A stretch of 25,703 bases of DNA from a virus. Its lineage: Duplodnaviria; Caudoviricetes. The translations under genes and the position numbers were made by a program. The notes beneath the pieces were generated by a model. That model was not told where the DNA came from. It searched no databases and saw nothing but the letters and a program-made list of their open reading frames with translations. Position 1 is the stretch's first letter, and each line of letters opens with the position of its first letter. Positions 2,848-17,185 of this stretch are shown here, one piece after another. The stretch covers positions 1-25,703 of IMG/VR virus record IMGVR_UViG_3300009159_000282. One strand, written 5' to 3'.

Positions 2848-3186
2848 TCAATCTCCTCTAGTGTCAGTGTTGAGTGCGGGTTTGACTGTTCTGCGTATAC
2901 GAACTTCTTCTTTGTGCGCTTCTGCTTTACCGCGTATCACAGCATGAACAGTGATGCCTATTTCGTCTTTGCTGTTGAGCTTACGAAGCTCTATGCACAG
3001 GGCCCAGTCCTTGTTCTCAGTCTTAGCACGATAGAAATGCTTTGCGGCACGGCTACGAACGCTCTTAAGTACTGTGGACTCAGTCTTAGCAGTCACGCCT
3101 ATATAGTTGAGCCCGTTAACATTGAGCTCGTATATAATGTGATTGCGATCGACTCGCTTTTTACGGGTTGCTTTTGTTTCCATCAT
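2848..3186 (-). CDS. GIY-YIG-like nuclease domain protein (start revised to 3186)
   Basis: HIIY...YIGVT motif with downstream R, E and N residues in GIY-YIG order; the ORF-track start at 3201 lies inside promoter P5. Confidence 0.65.
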   Translation of the reverse strand: MMETKATRKKRVDRNHIIYELNVNGLNYIGVTAKTESTVLKSVRSRAAKHFYRAKTENKDWALCIELRKLNSKDEIGITVHAVIRGKAEAHKEEVRIRRTVKPALNTDTRGD

Positions 3187-3192
3187 AAGTGT

Positions 3193-3221
3193 ATTATACA
3201 AGGTTTTACCAACCCTGTCAA
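3193..3221 (-). promoter_or_regulatory. sigma70-type early promoter P5 with GGTAAAACC box
   Basis: TTGACA-gggttggtaaaaccttg-TATAAT, 17-nt spacer; box at 3202-3210; ATG begins 6 nt after TATAAT. Confidence 0.9.
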
Positions 3222-3249
3222 CCTTTTTTGGAAATTATTTTGTTGTATT

Positions 3250-3495
3250 TAGACAACACCGGCGGCACTCCGGCCCGGAGGCCCTGGGCTCAGTCATGTC
3301 TGACCCAGATCCGTTTGCCTCTCCTCCCACATGGGCGAGTTTGAAACCGCTGACAACGGTGGGCAATTCACAGCAGACACGCACGACCCTTCACAGGGTG
3401 ATTTGGGCTAGGCCCTCAACTTAGCTAGCGGACCCCATGGGACTTGTCAGAAATCCTTCCGGCGCTGTCCATCTAATTCATCTGCTGTTACGGTT
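3250..3495 (-). ncRNA. candidate structured ncRNA 2 (about 240 nt) directly 3' of the tRNA
   Basis: 11-bp long-range stem 3459-3469/3252-3262 with two G-U pairs on the minus strand; ACCCT-GTGA-AGGGT GNRA hairpin; several more stems. Confidence 0.55.
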
Positions 3496-3502
3496 ATACA
3501 AA

Positions 3503-3579
3503 TGGTGGGCCGTGAGTGATTCGAACACTCCACCAAAGGATTATGAGTCCTCTGCTCTAACCAAATGAGCTAACGGCCC
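3503..3579 (-). tRNA. tRNA-Ile2 (CAU anticodon, lysidine type)
   Basis: 77-nt cloverleaf GGGCCGTTAGCTCA...GAGGA-CTCATAA-TCCTT...GTTCGAATC...CGGCCCACCA with encoded CCA; C4-G69 and C5-G68 pairs (TilS determinants) favour Ile2 over Met. Confidence 0.9.
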
Positions 3580-3604
3580 TGATGTTACACTTAACAGTAT
3601 AACA

Positions 3605-4516: not shown

Positions 4517-4662
4517 TAAGTAACCTTTGTATATGATAGCAAGTTACCATGACCATATTGTGCTTCTGCTAGTTGCTTACATTGGATATCATCATTAGCA
4601 TAGATGAATGTATTAGCAGTCTGAAGTTGGTTAATCCTAACCCATATAGCATATTGATACAT
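4516..4662 (-). CDS. small hypothetical protein (48 aa, not in the ORF track)
   Basis: manual translation MYQYAIWVRINQLQTANTFIYANDDIQCKQLAEAQYGHGNLLSYTKVT*; TAATG overlap with the GT9 start; fills the gap exactly. Confidence 0.75.
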   Translation of the reverse strand: MYQYAIWVRINQLQTANTFIYANDDIQCKQLAEAQYGHGNLLSYTKVT

Positions 4663-4681
4663 ATATAACTCTCTTTCTTAA

Positions 4682-4903
4682 TTATCTTACAGCGGGGTCT
4701 TTAATAGCAGATCTTGATTCTCTTAAGTATTCTTCCCAACTAGGACGAATCACTTCTGTACGTATTGCACTAGGAGCATCTGTATAAGGACAATACTGAT
4801 TCCATGTACAGCGTGGATCTTTAACACCTATAGTGGGAACACCTGAACAAGCTGTAAGAGCTGTAAGGAGAGTCAGTAGACACAGTATAAGAGTGGTTCG
4901 CAT
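4682..4903 (-). CDS. small lipoprotein (start revised to 4903)
   Basis: MR, hydrophobic stretch and LTAC lipobox; the ORF-track start at 4939 is the -35 box of P6. Confidence 0.7.
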   Translation of the reverse strand: MRTTLILCLLTLLTALTACSGVPTIGVKDPRCTWNQYCPYTDAPSAIRTEVIRPSWEEYLRESRSAIKDPAVR

Positions 4904-4910
4904 AGTTAAT

Positions 4911-4939
4911 ATTATACGGTAAAACCTGACAAAAGTCAA
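4911..4939 (-). promoter_or_regulatory. sigma70-type early promoter P6 with GGT-N3-ACC box
   Basis: TTGACT-tttgtcaggttttaccg-TATAAT, 17-nt spacer; box at 4918-4926. Confidence 0.85.
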
Positions 4940-5229
4940 CCAGAATCAGGAGTTTTTAGGCCATTATTGAGACGTTTTTGTGGCATTTTGGCACACTTTG
5001 AGCAGGATTATTAGGTAAAAAAATTTTGATAGGCTGTGGTGGAGAGAGGCTATGCTAGATAGTTCCGCATATTATACTGCATTTCTCATGATTCCCAGCA
5101 TAAGATTGTGTGACCCCCACATGCTCTAGTATAATAGTTTCGATCAGCTGCCGCAGGCCCTATCTATACAGCGGGGTCACAGCCGCCTGACTGTATACAC
5201 GCTAGATATATGTTCAAATCACTTGCAAC

Positions 5230-8992: not shown

Positions 8993-9613
8993 ATGAAATT
9001 TAATTGTAGTGCCGGTGGCATAGAACGTACTGTTTCAATTGATCTACCCTTAACTCCCACAAAGATCGCTATATTCATAAGTGGTGGAATGGATAGTGCT
9101 ATACTCTATTACTTGTTATTGAAGGCCAATGCTGAACAAGGTAACCTGCATCAAATTATACCCTTTACTGTAAACAGGACTGAGGGTTCTCGTTATTTTA
9201 CTCGTCCTGTTATAGCTCACGTACACTCACAGTTCAATATACCTTATAAAGACCCCCACGAAGTTGGCGATCCTAGTTTACCCGGTCACCTACAAGTTAT
9301 GAGTGGCGCAACTAGCGTTATGCATATGGGATTTAATTCTATATACGGCGGCGTAATTACTCAACTGCCTGAACACATTATTGGTTACGATCCTGCTCCC
9401 ACAGGTGATACTGAAATAATCAAGTTACCCTTCAAAGATATAACCAAGGGCTACATTATTGATCTTATTGTGCGTCATAAACAAGAAGCCTTGTTCTATC
9501 TTACACACAGTTGTTCAATATTGGAAATAGGTAAATGTAACAGTTGCAATGGTTGTAACGAACGCAACTGGGGATTTGCACAATGTGGGTTAACTGACCC
9601 TGGTACCATCTAA
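8993..9613 (+). CDS. QueC-like PP-loop ATPase
   Basis: ISGGMDS PP-loop and C-terminal THSC...CNSCNGC.ER zinc motif. Confidence 0.75.
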   Translation: MKFNCSAGGIERTVSIDLPLTPTKIAIFISGGMDSAILYYLLLKANAEQGNLHQIIPFTVNRTEGSRYFTRPVIAHVHSQFNIPYKDPHEVGDPSLPGHLQVMSGATSVMHMGFNSIYGGVITQLPEHIIGYDPAPTGDTEIIKLPFKDITKGYIIDLIVRHKQEALFYLTHSCSILEIGKCNSCNGCNERNWGFAQCGLTDPGTI

Positions 9614-10687
9614 ATCACTACGTTCAATAAACATTTCTTTAGGCTTAGATATCTTTGACGATGTTCCACACATTGCTACACACATGTTTAATTGCTTGTT
9701 ATTCCAAAATTTCTCCCAGATGTTTTGATACATCTCACTATTAATAATATCCTTAATGGAGTAGTGATAAGCATTCTGTGATATAGCACCGCCTAGAGCT
9801 TCAATTAGGCTGTGATATTCATTTAACATTTGCAACCTAATCTGAGTCATACCAACAATAGTATCTACCGGTATATATGGTATTATGCCCAGATAACAGC
9901 AAGGAAATACTTGCCCGTATGCATCGATATATAGTTCATGTTGTTCTATTGCGCCACATTTGATAATACTTTCTTTTGCAATATCTCGAAAATTAGTTAT
10001 AGCGTTTCGATCGATAAATTTAATTTCGCTGTAGCCGCTTGGCTCTAGAAGTCGTGTAGTATCCCCATTTTTATCATAAACAGGAAAAGTTGGATCAAAG
10101 AAGAAACGGCCGCTGTCCTTCATCGAAAATGATTCAAATCCTAACTCATTGGCTAATTGCTTGACTTTGGCAACTTGATGCTCATTGTGTTTAAATCGAA
10201 TAAATGCCCACTCAGCAATGCCTCCAGCTTGTATAAAATCGTAAGCATTATCTATGATCTTATCAAAGTCAGTACCTACCCGATACAAACTGTGTGTATC
10301 TTCTAATCCGTCAATAGCAAAAACTACCCTATGATTTTTTGGCAGAGCTTTGGCTAACTGTTGCCACCAGTCTTTAGATCTAAGGCTTCCGTTGGTGTAG
10401 ATCCATACGTGTAAATTGGGATTAACAGACACAGAGTATTCAATCATTGCGATTAGATCATTGTTTAATAACGGATCACCAAAGTTACCGCAGAAGTAAT
10501 ACTTGTCAATTTGATTTAGTACATCCGCAGTCATAATACTTTTAAACTGTTCCAAAGACCAACTAGATAATTTTATCAATGGATTATCTAGCCCACCATG
10601 TATGTTTCGCTGACATTGGGGACAACTGGCTTGACAGTTATTGGTAATTTCAAGATGTATTTGTTTTAATTCGTTAAATTTAAACAT
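9590..10687 (-). CDS. radical SAM enzyme with C-terminal SPASM/twitch-like domain
   Basis: CQASCPQC; GNFGDP; YTNG; IDGL; C-terminal C...G.VFPCC...CVAMC. Confidence 0.9.
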   Translation of the reverse strand: MFKFNELKQIHLEITNNCQASCPQCQRNIHGGLDNPLIKLSSWSLEQFKSIMTADVLNQIDKYYFCGNFGDPLLNNDLIAMIEYSVSVNPNLHVWIYTNGSLRSKDWWQQLAKALPKNHRVVFAIDGLEDTHSLYRVGTDFDKIIDNAYDFIQAGGIAEWAFIRFKHNEHQVAKVKQLANELGFESFSMKDSGRFFFDPTFPVYDKNGDTTRLLEPSGYSEIKFIDRNAITNFRDIAKESIIKCGAIEQHELYIDAYGQVFPCCYLGIIPYIPVDTIVGMTQIRLQMLNEYHSLIEALGGAISQNAYHYSIKDIINSEMYQNIWEKFWNNKQLNMCVAMCGTSSKISKPKEMFIERSDLDGTRVS

Positions 10688-11310
10688 ACAAGCTCTTCAA
10701 TTGATTTATCTAATGCTACAGTAACAATCAGTCTTGGGCCAGGCGTAAAATGTACTGTATGAGCGCAATCTGTTTTGACAAATGCGCTGGGAGTATAGAC
10801 ATTTCTTGCAACTAACTCTGGAGCTCCTAAAAACTCATATCTACTTTGTGTGTCATGCCCTGGAACACTCTTGTTGGTATACTCACGACCATTAGGTGCT
10901 AGGAATTTAGTTTCTACTATCCTAGGATCGTCGTATTCAAGACTACCCCACCAAATTAAAGGATCATAGGGATTTCCCATGACCATGACATTTAGTCTTG
11001 ACCGTATTCTGTAGACTGCGCCTGTTTTAGGATCAGCCTTTGTATCAATATGTGGATCCGGGTTACCCAATGTACACATAAACACGTTTATACCACCAAA
11101 TTCAGTATCACACCCGTATTGATTTAAAAAGGCATTTAATTCTTGCCCTACTATACTATTACGCCATTCAGCTTGTGCTTCCGGAGTGTATTGAGTTAGG
11201 TCAGTATTATGTCCAATGTTGCCCGTTAATCGATCTTTATATCGATTTAAAATCCATTCTCGAGCATTGTTAGAAAAATTAAACGTTAGTGAATGATAAA
11301 ATTTCTTCAA
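10666..11310 (-). CDS. putative cupin / Fe(II)-2OG oxygenase-like protein (paralog B)
   Basis: PHID...AHTV...PRLIVTV (HxD...H plus distal R); TTG start; paralog of 11279-11962. Confidence 0.55.
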   Translation of the reverse strand: MKKFYHSLTFNFSNNAREWILNRYKDRLTGNIGHNTDLTQYTPEAQAEWRNSIVGQELNAFLNQYGCDTEFGGINVFMCTLGNPDPHIDTKADPKTGAVYRIRSRLNVMVMGNPYDPLIWWGSLEYDDPRIVETKFLAPNGREYTNKSVPGHDTQSRYEFLGAPELVARNVYTPSAFVKTDCAHTVHFTPGPRLIVTVALDKSIEELVCLNLTN

Positions 11311-11962
11311 TTGACTTATCCAATGGAACTGTTACAATTATTCGAGGAACGGGACTACAGTTTACTGTATGCACACAATCTGTTTTAACAAATGCAGTGG
11401 GCATTAATATATTTCCTGCTATACAGGTAGGAGTTCCTGCTAATTTTAATCTGTCTTCTTTAGTTTTTCCCGGAATATTTCTACAGGTAAACGGAAGATT
11501 TGTGCTTAAATCAAGATATTCAACGTCAGCCAAAGCAGGATGATCCGGGCCAAAGTCACCCCACCACCACATTTCATCTTCTGGATTTCCTTGTACCATG
11601 ATGTTTAATCTTGTCTTGATAACTTTTTCGTATTTGTATGTAGTACCTAATACTTTATTGATAAGACTTTTACATAGGATATCCATATGCGGATTTCCTG
11701 GATAGTATTCTTCTCTATTACATATGAATGTAGTAATACCTGCCATACTAGTATCACACCCGTAATTTTTTAAAAAATCATTAATTTCGATACCCACTAG
11801 ACTTGAATGCCATTCTTCTTGTGCTTGTTTTGAAAAGAATTCCGATGTATCGTCGTGATGATAAAATTGTTCTTTAAATTTATCTTTGTATCTATCTAAA
11901 ACCCATTGCTTAGCCTCAATGGATAGATCAAAGTCTAGCGAGTGATAGTATTTTGTAGTCAT
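11279..11962 (-). CDS. putative cupin / Fe(II)-2OG oxygenase-like protein (paralog A)
   Basis: PHMD...VHTV...PRIIVTV; shares YHSL.F, YGCDT, RLN.MV.GNP, AFVKTDC.HTV and LDKSIEE with its neighbour. Confidence 0.55.
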   Translation of the reverse strand: MTTKYYHSLDFDLSIEAKQWVLDRYKDKFKEQFYHHDDTSEFFSKQAQEEWHSSLVGIEINDFLKNYGCDTSMAGITTFICNREEYYPGNPHMDILCKSLINKVLGTTYKYEKVIKTRLNIMVQGNPEDEMWWWGDFGPDHPALADVEYLDLSTNLPFTCRNIPGKTKEDRLKLAGTPTCIAGNILMPTAFVKTDCVHTVNCSPVPRIIVTVPLDKSIEEILSFTNV

Positions 11963-11968
11963 TTTATT

Positions 11969-12592
11969 TTAATCCCCTATTGGCATTTTTTTCCAATCCT
12001 CTTCAGTGACAGATCGTTTATCCCAGGTCGCCCATGTACCTGGAACATGTTCATAATACAGATGATATTGCCAACATTTTTGTACATCATATGGACACGT
12101 TTGTATAAAGCCTTCCCCCTTCTTAAGACCGGGGATAGCTTTACAAAATGCAGAATGATATACATTCCACCATCCCACAGTTTCTTTTTTCTCACGAGAC
12201 TGTATCGTTATAAAGTAAGCATCAAACTGTTTAATTAAATTTAAAGGTTTAATTATCTGTGCGTCTACCATACGGAATATATCTACCATTCCTCTAAAAC
12301 TTCTTTGTCTATATTTAGGAAACAGGTATGCTCGATGCAGATGTATAGCGATATTAGATGGATATCGCCCATCATTGAATAACCCGGCCATTACAACCGG
12401 TTCGTGCGTAATTTTATCGTAAACTACTACATACCCTACGTGTTTTTCCAAAATTAAAAACTTTGGAGTATATATTTCTCTAAGCCAATTATCTTCGCTC
12501 AGACATAATTCTCGTACTTCCTCAAATTCTGCACAAGATTCATAAAATATCTTATGATAAAAATTATTAGGATTTAAAGATTGTAGGTTCAT
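11969..12592 (-). CDS. hypothetical protein, possibly GNAT acyltransferase fold
   Basis: LHRAYLFPKYRQ resembles GNAT motif A; TAAATA-N5-ATG start. Confidence 0.45.
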   Translation of the reverse strand: MNLQSLNPNNFYHKIFYESCAEFEEVRELCLSEDNWLREIYTPKFLILEKHVGYVVVYDKITHEPVVMAGLFNDGRYPSNIAIHLHRAYLFPKYRQRSFRGMVDIFRMVDAQIIKPLNLIKQFDAYFITIQSREKKETVGWWNVYHSAFCKAIPGLKKGEGFIQTCPYDVQKCWQYHLYYEHVPGTWATWDKRSVTEEDWKKMPIGD

Positions 12593-12597
12593 AAAAA

Positions 12598-12603
12598 TAT
12601 TTA
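12598..12603 (-). promoter_or_regulatory. T4-late-like promoter TAAATA, 5 nt before ATG
   Basis: TAAATA-TTTTT-ATG(12592). Confidence 0.7.
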
Positions 12604-12625
12604 TTAGGGGCCTAATCAGGCTCGA

Positions 12626-13909
12626 TTATTTTTGTTTTATCTTACTTGGATCAACGGCTCCAAAGTATACTTTATCAATGCGGCTTGTTTCTCCGCAGAT
12701 ACTAGAACAGTAGGCCATCTTACCATCCTTAACACTATCCTTAGACCAAGAATCGGCATAGACTCGATCTAAATGTCCATCATCTAAAATATCTTTTAAT
12801 GAATGTTTGTTGAGATCAAAATGATCCCATCCGTAGTCGTTCATATGCTTGTGTAACTGCATTGATCTGTAGTCTGTAAATGTTCCACTAATGTGTGTAC
12901 CTATGTAACAACAAGGCAATACTCTTCCAAAATTATCAACAAATATTTCTTTATCGTCTCTAAATACATTTGCTTTACATTTAATTGTACAAGCATCAAG
13001 TTTGCTAGTATCCTGTTTATTGATTATCTCATAGACTTTATTAAACTTTTCTTCATAGTTGTCATTAGACTTGTCTGCTCTTAGTGCTTTGTACTCTTCA
13101 AATTTAAATGGGTACCAACGAGCTGGGCGGGTTTCTCCTCCTACAGGATCTCTTAAGATTCTATTATCTGGATCTTTTGGAGCATGAATCATATAATCTA
13201 ATTCTCCATCCCTAGTTACCGCAGGTAAAGTGGTTAGATAACTACCGGTATCTACTCCTAATGCTTTTTTAGGAACAAACAATACAAACCCTAGATCGTC
13301 TGCCATTTTGCGAGCTTCTTCTATTTGATGTTCGTTATGTTCAAATATCAAGTATTCCCACACAGCGTTACCGCCAGCATCTATAAATGCTTTAGCATTG
13401 GCCATTAAGTTTTTCCATTTAACATTTCTGCGATATATATGATTAGTATCTTCTAATCCGTCAATGCTAAAAATAAGTCTCCAACAGGTTAAATCTCTAG
13501 GATTGCGTTTAGCGAATACAGCACCTAACTTAGCCCACCATTCGGGATTACGCATACCTCCGTTAGTATGCATCTGTAGAACAAAATCGCTTTTCTTTTT
13601 AGGCTTCCACCAAGCTGTTTTTTGATATTGAGTATGCTCTAGAATATATTCACAAATTTCTAATGTATTGCTGGCCATACAAGGATCACCTTGTGTTCCG
13701 CAAAACATTATCTTAACTAGCCCTGATAACAAATCTGGTGGAAAGTATTCTTTGAATTTTTCTAAAGATATCTCTCCTATTTCTAAGTCAGGTCTGACTA
13801 ACGGAGAGTTTCGATAGAAACGTACACACATGGGACATGCGGCATTACATGCATTGGTTAATTCAATATGCAGTTGACGTACTTCTTGCGTCTTCCAGAA
13901 CTCAGTCAT
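12626..13909 (-). CDS. radical SAM enzyme with C-terminal SPASM/twitch-like domain
   Basis: CNAACPMC; GTQGDP; HTNG; SIDGL; C-terminal C...G.VLPCC...CSSIC; paralog of 9590-10687. Confidence 0.9.
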   Translation of the reverse strand: MTEFWKTQEVRQLHIELTNACNAACPMCVRFYRNSPLVRPDLEIGEISLEKFKEYFPPDLLSGLVKIMFCGTQGDPCMASNTLEICEYILEHTQYQKTAWWKPKKKSDFVLQMHTNGGMRNPEWWAKLGAVFAKRNPRDLTCWRLIFSIDGLEDTNHIYRRNVKWKNLMANAKAFIDAGGNAVWEYLIFEHNEHQIEEARKMADDLGFVLFVPKKALGVDTGSYLTTLPAVTRDGELDYMIHAPKDPDNRILRDPVGGETRPARWYPFKFEEYKALRADKSNDNYEEKFNKVYEIINKQDTSKLDACTIKCKANVFRDDKEIFVDNFGRVLPCCYIGTHISGTFTDYRSMQLHKHMNDYGWDHFDLNKHSLKDILDDGHLDRVYADSWSKDSVKDGKMAYCSSICGETSRIDKVYFGAVDPSKIKQK

Positions 13910-15071
13910 GTGCTAGCCCTATAATTTTTGCAAATTCCGGAAACACTTCTGCGTAATCTTGTTTTCGATAATCGTCGTGTATTTTAATTTCTTCTAGAAA
14001 CGTATCCCACATAGCCGGATCAGGTGTGCCGTTCTCAATGAATCCAATAATGCCCGGTAATTGTGTCCATACATGTCTATAGGACTTTGGTATTGAATTA
14101 AGTCTATCAAGAACGATCTTTTTAACATCTTCTGGCATAATGCTAATATTGAAATGTCTTGGGCCGTGGACTAGATTTAGAAAACTTCCAAAGTCTGGTT
14201 ATGCCCTATAGTACTCTTCTATAATCTCTGGAAGATAATAAACATTTAAATTACTCAAAGTAATAAACCAACCTATTGTTAAATTGCCTTCTTGTGTTCT
14301 AGACTTGGCCATATTAGCCTGAACAACTTCCCAGTCTGCTAGATAACGCATGTATTCAAATTGTTTACCAACTCCATCTATGCTAAAATGTACAGATATT
14401 CTTTTAAAATGTTTCCACACTTCAACCTGTTTAGGCCATAAAGTACCATTAGTAGCGTAGTGTACTTCTATATCTTTGGCATATCCTTTTTCTACAGCAA
14501 GTTCTAATATACTCCACATCTTCTTGCTCATAAAAGGTTCCCCTCCATAAAACTCTAAATGTTTTATAGTATGTAGATGGCTTTCTAGATCTGGCCAAAA
14601 ATTACTTTCTTCTTCAAAACTTTTATAAAACTTTTTGATATGGCTTCGGTAATCTTTAATAGCATAGATTTTATGATATTGTGTATCATATCCCTCGTCA
14701 ACCCATTGACTGCTTGAATGGGGATTACATGTTCTACAACGGATATTACATTGATTACCTAAACTGGCTTCAAAATAAACCAGCCCCTGTTGTTGATTAT
14801 ATCGCTCGTTATCTCTAAGTCGCTTGCTTTTTCCGCCCCCGTCTTCTTCTTCCCAACAACGAATACAACCTGTATTACGAACACCAGTCTCACAGTCTTT
14901 TTTTAGTTGTTGTAATTCGGGATGATTAAGATGTTCTTCTATAGTTTTTTCGCCCAGTATGTATTTGCTATCAGGATCTTGACTAACATACATACAACAC
15001 GGACGAGTAGTTCCGTCATTACTTGCACTTAGGCTATGGAATGCATTTATGCACCAAGTATTACTTTTCAT
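13902..15071 (-). pseudogene. radical SAM enzyme with N-terminal twitch-like domain, interrupted by one in-frame TAA (14199-14201)
   Basis: WC...RPCC...CIRC then CNIRCRTC and YGGEP; the frame continues EEYYRA*PDFGSFLNLVHGPRHFNISIMPEDV into ORF 13902-14138. Confidence 0.75.
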
Positions 15072-15072
15072 A

Positions 15073-15807
15073 TTATATTCCTTCTCGAATCATAGTCCAT
15101 TGATTTCTTTTTTCATTTAGATATTTGTAATCAGTTATTTTATCAAAATCCATATTATTTTTAAACCTTAAACAATAGTTGTCCATGTTAACTAGCTCAG
15201 ATGATATAACTTCAACTCCGCAGTCTGTAATAATCTTATACCAAATATTTTCTATATTAGCATCTTTAATATCTAGAAAACGAAGTGTATGCCATCTTTC
15301 TTTTAGTGTACGTACTCCTAGTCTATTAAAATACATAAAATGGTTGTGTAGCATATTGTTATCCGCTACCCAACCAAATGCTTTGGGAGACTCTTGCGGA
15401 ACAGATTTGGCTATTTGTTTAAAGTCTAATGAAGTTTTTTTATTAAAAACTATTTCCGGAGTTAAAAAGAATACTACATCATTTTCTTTCAAATGATTCA
15501 ACATCAAAAATAACTGTTGATATAAAAAAAATCTGCTTTTGCTAACATCAATTAAATTAATATACTTCTTCACATCAACTACTGTACAACTAGTTGGATT
15601 AATTGTTTGTTTAAAAAAATCTAAAGATTCATTAAAACTTAAATTATTGATGCTGTGTTTTGAACCTATATTGGTGTTCCATATATCGAACACTGAATCA
15701 ACGAATGCGGCATCAATTAACTCTGCTCCCTCTATATGCATTTTATGATACTGAGCACACTCAACAAATCTCAATTGACCAGCATATAACACATTAAAAT
15801 TTGTCAT
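15073..15807 (-). CDS. hypothetical protein, possibly degenerate glycosyltransferase-like
   Basis: N-terminal VLYAGQLR strand-loop motif; in an operon with radical SAM genes; no clear DXD. Confidence 0.45.
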   Translation of the reverse strand: MTNFNVLYAGQLRFVECAQYHKMHIEGAELIDAAFVDSVFDIWNTNIGSKHSINNLSFNESLDFFKQTINPTSCTVVDVKKYINLIDVSKSRFFLYQQLFLMLNHLKENDVVFFLTPEIVFNKKTSLDFKQIAKSVPQESPKAFGWVADNNMLHNHFMYFNRLGVRTLKERWHTLRFLDIKDANIENIWYKIITDCGVEVISSELVNMDNYCLRFKNNMDFDKITDYKYLNEKRNQWTMIREGI

Positions 15808-15826
15808 AGTTATGTATCAAATCTTT

Positions 15827-17185
15827 TTATTTTCCAGATTCGTATGTTTCCTTGCACAGTTGATAAAAGTCAGTGTATTCTGGGAATAGTTCTAACAAAT
15901 TAGTTCCTAATCGTTTATCATTTTCTGTAAAGAATACATAAAAGTCTCTACGACCCCTACGGATCTTATCTTGATCAACTGGATTGGTTTTCATATATTC
16001 GTGGACACGCCTAAACTTAACGATCTCTGATAATTCAAACCATTCAGCATTATCTTCCATAAATTTAAGTGTGTCATCCATATAGCTCATAAACTCTGGA
16101 GGAAGAATGTTAATCATCCAGTGCGGAGGATCTTTCAAATAAGGTATATCTAAATGTATTAGATGCGATCCGTATTGTTTGCGCCATTCAATTACTTTTT
16201 CTAATAATTTTTTATAGTTTGTCACACACAGAACATTAAACGTACACATAAAATTAACACGTTTGCCTAGCTTAACAAACTCTAGCATGTTTCTTTCCCA
16301 ATGAGCACAGTTTAATCCAGTACGCATGTACTCGGCTTGAGGACCCCAACTATCAATTGAAGTAAAAATATTGAGAGTTTTGATCTTTTTGTCTTTTAAC
16401 AATTTTTTAGCCTGTTCTATAAATCTATCAACTCTATTAAAACTAACTCCAAGATTGCTATTGATACTAATTTCTAAGTCTGGAGCAGGCTCTCGATCTA
16501 ACAGCTCAAAGAAATCCATAGCACCTTTATTCATTAATGGTTCACCTCCTGTAATGCGAAGCGTATGTAGGTCTTTGCGTAGACTTGGCCACCATTTCCA
16601 AAACGCATCGATATAGGGATTGTCATCTTTAGGACCATAGTATGTTCCGTGATCTAGGAAGCCTATACTATATTGCGGATGTGTAATATCGTAGTCACCG
16701 TATTTCTTTACTTCTTCCATCCACATGGTACTAGCTTGCGGCCCACAGTATCCGCAACGGAAATTACAGTTGTTACCAAAGCTAACTTCCAAGTACTTGG
16801 GATTAATATCAGCGTCCCAAGGTAGTTGGGCTAGTTTCTCAATAGCTTGTTCTGCCCAAGGATTGCCGCCACTATGCAATACTCTATCGCTAGAGTGATC
16901 TCCTGGTAAATCTTCAATGTTCCAGCAGTAATAACATTCTTTAGGCCGCTCACCTTCTAACATGGCCTTGCGTTGTTCTTTCTTCCACTTGGTATTGTGT
17001 AATGCCGCAGGGTTTTCTGCGATTTCGTCCAATTGGATATGATGTGGTTTAGGGTGATAACAACTGTGATTGTCGCCTGTATGTAGATACAAAGTTTGGT
17101 GTAACCATTTCATAGCACAAAATCCAGGACCTACCGAATTAAGTCGATCTTTTACATTTTTAAAAAATTGAAGTTGTTGTTCCAT
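15827..17185 (-). CDS. radical SAM enzyme with N-terminal twitch-like domain
   Basis: FC...HSCYH...ECYYCW then CNFRCGYC, TGGEP, NSNL and TSIDS. Confidence 0.9.
   Translation of the reverse strand: MEQQLQFFKNVKDRLNSVGPGFCAMKWLHQTLYLHTGDNHSCYHPKPHHIQLDEIAENPAALHNTKWKKEQRKAMLEGERPKECYYCWNIEDLPGDHSSDRVLHSGGNPWAEQAIEKLAQLPWDADINPKYLEVSFGNNCNFRCGYCGPQASTMWMEEVKKYGDYDITHPQYSIGFLDHGTYYGPKDDNPYIDAFWKWWPSLRKDLHTLRITGGEPLMNKGAMDFFELLDREPAPDLEISINSNLGVSFNRVDRFIEQAKKLLKDKKIKTLNIFTSIDSWGPQAEYMRTGLNCAHWERNMLEFVKLGKRVNFMCTFNVLCVTNYKKLLEKVIEWRKQYGSHLIHLDIPYLKDPPHWMINILPPEFMSYMDDTLKFMEDNAEWFELSEIVKFRRVHEYMKTNPVDQDKIRRGRRDFYVFFTENDKRLGTNLLELFPEYTDFYQLCKETYESGK

Follow-up and report, generated by a model that had tools for sequence, protein, structure and literature searches.

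Genomic setting

The window analysed here, the whole of a 25.7-kb virus record (IMG/VR IMGVR_UViG_3300009159_000282, positions 1 to 25,703), encodes tail-chaperone, cell-wall hydrolase and radical-SAM genes. The sequencing runs that contain this stretch are mostly freshwater metagenomes, and contigs bearing its relatives reach 353 kb. The minus strand carries, in this order, a 303-aa gene, a tRNA (3503–3579), ~260 non-coding bases that hold the RNA described below and a run of small genes, each with its own near-perfect σ70 promoter. The features of the locus are listed in Table 1. Loci are designated by L numbers.

The tRNA was called Met by ARAGORN from its CAT anticodon. It carries C4–G69, C5–G68, G27·U43 and G30–C40, which are given as Ile2 features in PMC2500205, so that its labelling as tRNA-Ile in the first-pass annotation of the window is probably right despite this call. 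The TG-n-TATACT site was missed by the σ70 scan, which requires a −35 element. In relatives such as L030, L033, L045 and L213, the same element stands ahead of either the tRNA or the RNA itself, and the site is likely to drive both the tRNA and the RNA.

The 111-aa protein encoded next downstream (2848–3183, minus strand) has 324 relatives among viral contigs but none in cultured phages and gave zero matches in Pfam and PHROG; a search of 50,697 phage records also returned no match. Its IY...YIG pattern is reminiscent of GIY-YIG nucleases. The promoter of this gene is one of four near-perfect σ70 promoters whose spacers all contain GGTAAAACC (3221–3193, 2617–2589, 1618–1590 and 789–761, minus strand), and a fifth look-alike lies near 300–330. 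Two other conserved non-coding segments are found on the minus strand. One (~1020–1220) has homologues at L040:7316–7516, L085:3571–3787 and, weakly, L079:6841–7005, with stem changes among them as judged by eye, and gave zero matches in Rfam; the other (~830–1000) stands ahead of a terminator, has a homologue at L026:6328–6488 and, over part of its length, is complementary to the GGAGC-type ribosome-binding sites of genes in the vicinity. A cluster at 8993–17185 includes four radical-SAM genes as well as a QueC-like gene, and Ralstonia phage RsoM2USA encodes a relative of one of its genes at 36% identity.

Table 1. Features of the tRNA–RNA locus in the window and the basis on which each was placed
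Feature	Coordinates	Strand	Basis and remarks
Extended −10 promoter-like site, TG-n-TATACT	3596..3604	−	Sequence; same element in relatives; presumed function
tRNA, CAT anticodon, encoded CCA, Ile2-type determinants	3503..3579	−	ARAGORN; determinants compared with PMC2500205
Structured non-coding RNA gene, ~217 nt, diverged member of the family	3280..3496	−	Best covariance-model match, descriptor, L098; 3' end approximate
P0: CCGU 3493–3490 with ACGG 3314–3311, behind the conserved 5' AACC	3311..3493	−	Closes both domains
P1: 3488–3479/3379–3370, 10 bp, nested	3370..3488	−	Per-sequence search; closes domain 1
P2/P3 arm: P2 3476–3473/3424–3421, P3a ~3471–3467/3433–3429, P3b 3456–3453/3443–3440	3421..3476	−	Family helices covary
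PK1: P3b loop 3450–3444 with P6 loop 3356–3350, 7 Watson–Crick pairs	3350..3450	−	Family covariation
P4b hairpin, NUA triloop	3405..3415	−	UA loop conserved in the family; covaries with L098
P4c, GUGA-tetraloop hairpin	3386..3399	−	Window/L098 subtype only; same loop and different stem in L098
Domain 2 three-way junction: P5 3366–3362/3319–3315, lone pair 3361/3321, P6 3360–3357/3349–3346, P7 ~3339–3323	3315..3366	−	
PK2: triplet 3344–3342 with P8 loop 3296–3294, 3 pairs	3294..3344	−	Placed by hand
P8, 3' hairpin	3284..3308	−	Covariance model; compensatory in L098
GAGTGCC motif with TGTTGT-N6-ACAACA dyad (6-6-6)	3241..3271	−	Outside the RNA; contains the 3' strand of the 11-bp helix
σ70 promoter, perfect (12/12)	3193..3221	−	Promoter scan; drives the downstream 111-aa gene; neighbour, outside the RNA

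Folding of the single sequence

The first-pass annotation had proposed a structured RNA 3' of the tRNA, built around an 11-bp helix (3459–3469/3252–3262) and an 8-bp helix (3481–3488/3370–3377) that cross each other as a pseudoknot or two-state switch. All of the segments that it named lie where it placed them and are able to pair. In full, the longer helix has 13 bp (3471–3459/3262–3250) with 3 G–U pairs and the shorter has 10 bp (P1 in Table 1). Among 1000 dinucleotide shuffles, a helix of at least 11 bp arose in 11.9%, one of at least 13 bp with at most 3 G–U pairs in 1.9%, eight Watson–Crick pairs in 31% and both kinds of helix together in 5.8%. The folding z-score was −1.1 for 3245–3502 and −0.6 for 3280–3496. 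Taken from one sequence alone, these helices are barely beyond chance and are weak evidence.

The RNA family

The starting set comprised the best 80 of the 324 loci with relatives of the downstream 111-aa gene. Many of these have the same tRNA upstream, after which there is either nothing, or further tRNAs, or a ~215-nt segment starting with AAACC. Thirty distinct family members were collected by profile iteration together with a motif scan, and the full alignment has 32 rows of an RNA of ~215 nt from uncultured phages. A working alignment of 29 members (A2; L218 and L208 excluded, L217 included) has a mean identity of 55%. RNAalifold found two-sided changes at 33 of 40 pairs in the family, and a column scan of A2 contributed two pseudoknots. 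In the resulting 67-pair model 90.6% of cells are paired across the 29 members, with a two-sided change at 59 of the 67 pairs; none of 500 shuffles scored as high and slid controls gave 35–40%. A model-refined alignment of 31 distinct rows (L208 dropped), in which the nested pairs but not the pseudoknots had been fitted to the model beforehand, was compared with 200 alignments generated on the tree under a pairing-free null. Sixteen pairs reached E < 0.05, all of them in the model, and the top 24 covarying pairs all belong to it. Only 25 positions are invariant among the 29 members, and the helices vary freely. We have very little doubt that this is a real RNA family.

The fold predicted for the family is one of two domains and two pseudoknots, backed by covariation. 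P0 closes domain 1, in which P1 encloses the P2/P3 arm and P4, and domain 2, in which P5 encloses P6 and P7; P8 follows P0. PK1 pairs the loop of P3b with that of P6, and PK2 pairs a triplet following P6 with the loop of P8. P0 is 94% paired and covaries, P5 is 100% paired in the 29 members, and the lone pair of domain 2 shows G–C/A–U covariation. PK1 is 96% paired with two-sided changes at 7 of 7 pairs, three of which are among the pairs with E < 0.05 on the tree; PK2 is 100% paired and its best pair has an E of 0.1. Alternative partners for the P8 loop (P3 or the GGAA joiner) were dropped because the post-P6 triplet covaries better.

The proposal of a new tRNA-linked structured RNA is thus supported by covariation, synteny and a lack of Rfam matches. 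The individual elements of the proposed fold fared differently. The 8-bp helix is the P1 of the family, and the GUGA-tetraloop hairpin, the hairpin at 3405–3415, the three-way junction closed by 3315–3319/3362–3366 and the hairpin at 3284–3308 (P8) are all supported by relatives. A further hairpin at 3264–3283 finds no such support and overlaps the GAGTGCC-plus-dyad motif.

The window copy

A covariance model (R1; length 214, with the pseudoknots outside the model) was built without the window or L098. It places 3277–3496 (minus strand) at the top of 19 matches in the window, with 9.8 bits and an E of 0.013; the runner-up has an E of 0.15. L098, which came from a tRNA-pattern scan of 120 of ~1300 stretches, is a direct homologue of the window RNA (E = 1.5e-5) behind the same tRNA and is itself detected by R1 at an E of 4e-5. 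Compensatory changes between the two are present in P1, P5 and P8 and in both the NUA and the GUGA hairpins. The unconstrained fold of 3280–3496 reproduces the nested fold of the family, P0 included. The 5' AACC anchor, the closure of two domains by P0 and the family positions of P1, P5, P6 and P8 are all found in the window copy, which also occupies the family locus behind a tRNA and ahead of the 111-aa gene. A six-element descriptor, composed with the window already known, gave the window a score of 28, equal to the best members. Applied to 602 sequences, it returned 35 distinct matches, of which 31 were the window, L098 or family members and four lay elsewhere with scores of 19–20; a shuffled copy of the same set gave six matches. 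Two of 20,000 trailer shuffles passed (scores 19 and 20) and none scored above 20.

The resemblance is one of structure. Plain identity between the window and the main family is 56%, against a shuffled background of 53%, and a profile-HMM search of the main family found no match in the window. No terminator-like hairpin was found after P8 in the window, though one is present in most members, and the 3' ACUG of the family is missing. The R1 score of the window is below the best score (13.5 bits) of chance-like, motif-preselected bacterial loci. The window/L098 subtype is known from two distinct sequences only; a pairwise alignment of them misplaced P2/P3, and no model was based on it. The weak model score, background-level identity and missing terminator might suggest a decaying remnant or an unrelated look-alike, which we consider very unlikely given that the core helices and both pseudoknots are intact, that the changes relative to L098 are compensatory, that the locus is the same and that the descriptor score of 28 lies beyond that of any of the 20,000 shuffles. 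We conclude with high confidence that the window copy is an intact, diverged member of the family.

Within this copy, P1 lies at the same place as in every member in a per-sequence search. The P2/P3 arm carries a window-specific insert and was poorly aligned by R1, and the registers of P2 and P3a are uncertain. The 3' strand of PK1 lands in the PK1 columns of the family. The lone pair is C–G in both the window and L098. PK2 is formed by different complementary triplets in the window and in L098 in one register, although the short length of the pairing makes this weaker. The insert in P3 contains, at 3457–3463 (minus strand), the 7-mer that forms the 5' strand of PK1 in L016, L028, L042 and L217; its partner is absent from the window, and it is perhaps a leftover strand.

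The 3' flank and the 11-bp helix

The GAGTGCC motif and its dyad are present in 26 of 59 distinct loci and lie 85–135 nt ahead of the 111-aa gene in 21 of these 26. Their position is independent of the distance to the RNA, from which they are hundreds of bases away in L045, L079 and L080, and they also occur in loci with no RNA match, such as L009. The element is likely to be a protein-binding site, a putative operator of the next promoter.

This has consequences for the longer of the two crossing helices. Its pairing stands, and even extends to 13 bp, but its conservation does not: none of the 32 other members has a helix longer than 11 bp between the matching regions, and an ~88% identical variant has three deletions within 3459–3469. 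As this helix lacks support in relatives, the crossing pair of helices in the first-pass annotation does not correspond to a conserved pseudoknot; conservation lies with two other pseudoknots. The 13-bp helix could still act in this phage alone as a two-state switch for read-through into the next gene. Its length is found by chance in 1.9% of shuffles, the window has no terminator after P8 and, with the 3' tail included and the pseudoknots left open, the structure with this helix is computed at −93.7 kcal/mol against −78.3 kcal/mol for the family fold, so that it would be favoured by ~15 kcal/mol if the tail is transcribed. Such a switch is nevertheless highly improbable in view of the 32 other members, the deletions in the close relative, the assignment of the 3' strand to a promoter-linked DNA motif and the 12/12 promoter that the next gene has of its own.

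Gene independence and distribution

A tRNA lies upstream in 22 of the 32 main-family rows, with a spacer of 4–63 nt, and none lies within 260 nt in the other ten. The RNAs of L045 and L213 begin 15–20 nt after the TG-n-TATACT element with no tRNA between. A terminator-like hairpin follows the RNA in ~28 of 32 members, as judged by eye. Five carrier contigs have one copy each; five other related contigs, including a 99%-complete one of 353 kb, gave no RNA match in a search that had no weak-member control and that a diverged subtype could escape. ORF clustering across 44 loci tied no protein family to the RNA; the cluster of the 303-aa gene occurs in 15 of 22 loci that carry the RNA, against 11 of 22 other loci. 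Neither TROVE/Ro60 nor reverse transcriptase was found in the five carrier contigs, which are 43–58% complete. The longest stop-free sense frame in the members has a median of 37 aa. In the sole sequencing run labelled as RNA, 3270–3470 had no contig and cover elsewhere was low and scattered; two other runs are probably DNA.

The ten members without a tRNA, the two placed directly behind a promoter and the near-complete relative without the RNA argue for an accessory stand-alone gene rather than a theta-like trailer ribozyme. From this arrangement, the family RNA appears to be an accessory gene that is often carried on a tRNA transcript and heads a run of genes read by host polymerase. The suggestion that the RNA is released by tRNA processing is accordingly plausible for the window copy and does not extend to the family, which is independent of the tRNA. 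The tRNA-less members, the placement in L045 and L213, the terminator-like hairpins and the separate promoter of the next gene together make it probable that the RNA acts as a free molecule in trans.

Comparison with known RNAs

Rfam searches of the window and the member loci, at the gathering thresholds and at E ≤ 10, returned only the tRNA and chance-level matches, which is also the answer to a check that the first-pass annotation had proposed. GOLLD corresponds to Rfam RF02032 and ROOL to RF03087. Like the present family, GOLLD is phage-encoded, has multiple pseudoknots, often lies beside tRNAs and is of unexplained function (PMC12286853), but many GOLLD RNAs exceed 800 nt, against ~215 nt here, and the Rfam model, which represents the conserved 3' region, is unmatched at E ≤ 10. 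ROOL is similarly a pseudoknotted phage or prophage RNA found near tRNA islands and is described as non-essential and with no known protein partner (PMC12286853); its solved example has 659 nt, and it too has no Rfam match here. The trait shared by these two, a phage RNA near tRNA genes, is seen in the 22 tRNA-linked members. The raiA RNA is similar in size, has two pseudoknots and bears a P3a–internal loop–P3b arm whose apical loop forms a 6-bp PK1 (PMC12968392), where the family here has a 7-bp PK1 on a like arm. This is a resemblance of topology only: raiA is bacterial, its 5' and 3' ends are brought together by P1 and a single linker serves both of its pseudoknots (PMC12968392), whereas in the family P8 lies outside the closing helix, the pseudoknot partners are two hairpin loops and there is no Rfam match.

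Theta (HDV-like) ribozymes are pseudoknotted and lie directly 3' of phage tRNAs, but they are minimal, come mostly from gut phages and cut at most 5 nt from the tRNA end (PMC10879173), in contrast to the ~215 nt, variable spacer and frequent absence of a tRNA here. A G1 and P1 start within 5 nt of the tRNA 3' end was not found in the window: the first base after the CCA is U, and the only nearby G (3499) opens at most two pairs in a simple test. The theta-like self-processing that had been raised for this RNA therefore failed on position. The CR-I and CR-V motifs that form P4 of bacterial RNase P RNA occur in one and none of the 32 members, respectively, and not in the window, and Rfam gave no match. 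Resemblances to motifs of cobalamin riboswitches, SRP RNA and pistol ribozymes were discarded; Rfam gave no match and the two that were scanned for occur in none of the 32 members.

A third type of RNA, of ~267 nt, lies behind the same tRNA at L008:4279–4545, L013:4276–4545 and L014:4492–4757. It has the 5' AAACC, P0 and P8 in common with the family, along with look-alikes of P4b and P7 in what seems to be another order. Natural non-circular permutations are known for hammerheads (PMC10085705). A permuted-module relation may exist here and, with three sequences, is only a lead.

Searches beyond the starting loci added little. A blastn search with the window segment and two members against the 50,697 phage records gave no full-length match. 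Scans for close relatives by exact pattern recovered the window type, the L098 type and chance matches but nothing else, apart from the contig of L210 in one scan. In GTDB, 120 of ~190 matches to the family motif were retrieved, and the 80 of these scored with R1 contained nothing convincing (best 13.5 bits). In a further set of 120 loci, the 81 that were scored yielded only repeats of known members. No published description of such an RNA was found in the literature searched, which is largely open-access. The Minerva preprint (10.64898/2026.09.22.753630) treats other RNAs. Fremin 2023 (PMC10690425) reports IMG/VR RNA candidates of 29–151 nt, among which fragments of the family could be present; a search of three of the six supplementary files gave no family match. 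The family is thus apparently uncatalogued. It is of a known kind, the ornate RNAs of tRNA operons, and is set apart from GOLLD, ROOL and raiA by Rfam, size or wiring.

Proposed function and alternatives

The reading that we favour, tentatively and at a little short of an even chance, is that the folded RNA serves as a decoy or adaptor that binds a host protein early in infection. Host polymerase would transcribe tRNA-Ile2 and the RNA together from the extended −10 promoter, and host nucleases would cut the short A/U-rich spacer between them. PK1 would then dock P1–P4 onto P5–P7, with PK2 clamping P8 back, and the target would be a host factor with a part in translation, in tRNA metabolism or in defence. 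The early timing is something we infer. Neither a trailer-cutting ribozyme nor a cis switch would be expected of a stand-alone accessory gene at the head of a gene run, and freely varying stems with few invariant bases point to shape more than to antisense pairing; binding to a protein is reached by elimination of the other modes. That phage tRNAs reportedly counter defence systems (PMC11555353) is context rather than evidence.

Other modes of action have been weighed against a protein-binding RNA. In a homo-oligomer made of RNA only, akin to the GOLLD and ROOL cages, PK1 or PK2 would pair between chains. In ROOL, one covarying pair taken for a 'tertiary' contact turned out to link separate chains, and a Met-tRNA lies upstream of GOLLD env-38 (PMC12286853); in many members of the present family the 5' strand of PK1 opens with CUAG or CCGG, both palindromic, and no partner gene travels with the RNA. 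At 215 nt, however, the RNA is a third to a quarter of the size of ROOL and GOLLD, the palindrome is missing from about a third of the members and from the window, and covariation is the same for cis and trans pairing, so that we regard such an assembly as rather unlikely. Multi-way junctions, two pseudoknots, short conserved joiners and the position of 22 of 32 members behind a tRNA would also suit a ribozyme of a new class that acts on its own ends, on the precursor of the tRNA or in trans on another RNA. This is distinctly unlikely: the spacer varies from 2 to 63 nt and the tRNA is absent in ten of the 32, as against the theta cut at most 5 nt from the tRNA end (PMC10879173), and several of the invariant bases of the family are changed in the window. 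Motifs from the cores of the hammerhead, RNase P and group I RNAs occur in at most one of the 32 members and not in the window.

An RNA serving the start of phage DNA replication, as a primer, an R-loop or an origin-linked RNA, was considered on account of DnaA-box-like runs of TTATCCACA at this locus in L015 (after 4150) and L054 (~4600–5000). We hold this to be very improbable, since L054 has the runs and no RNA, and most members lack the runs and end in a terminator-like hairpin.

Implications

To our knowledge, large and intricately folded RNAs of bacteria and phages are rare, and the ones whose role is understood act as ribozymes, as riboswitches or in core machines; raiA, GOLLD and ROOL remain, as far as we know, unexplained. 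The family described here might be the smallest of a wider class of tRNA-operon phage RNAs whose new tertiary core can be rewired, the wirings being the main type, the window/L098 type and the reordered type of L008, L013 and L014. Such a core would be catalytic or self-assembling and would provide these large lake phages with an RNA-only machine acting on host translation, a prospect that we put forward as unlikely but not negligible. Since the collection searched contains no cultured carrier, genetic work is not yet within reach. The RNA is, however, small enough to be synthesized, has a covariation-backed model and comes in natural variants that reach down to background identity, with and without a tRNA. 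Its structure, oligomeric state, catalysis and partners (by pull-down) are therefore directly testable.
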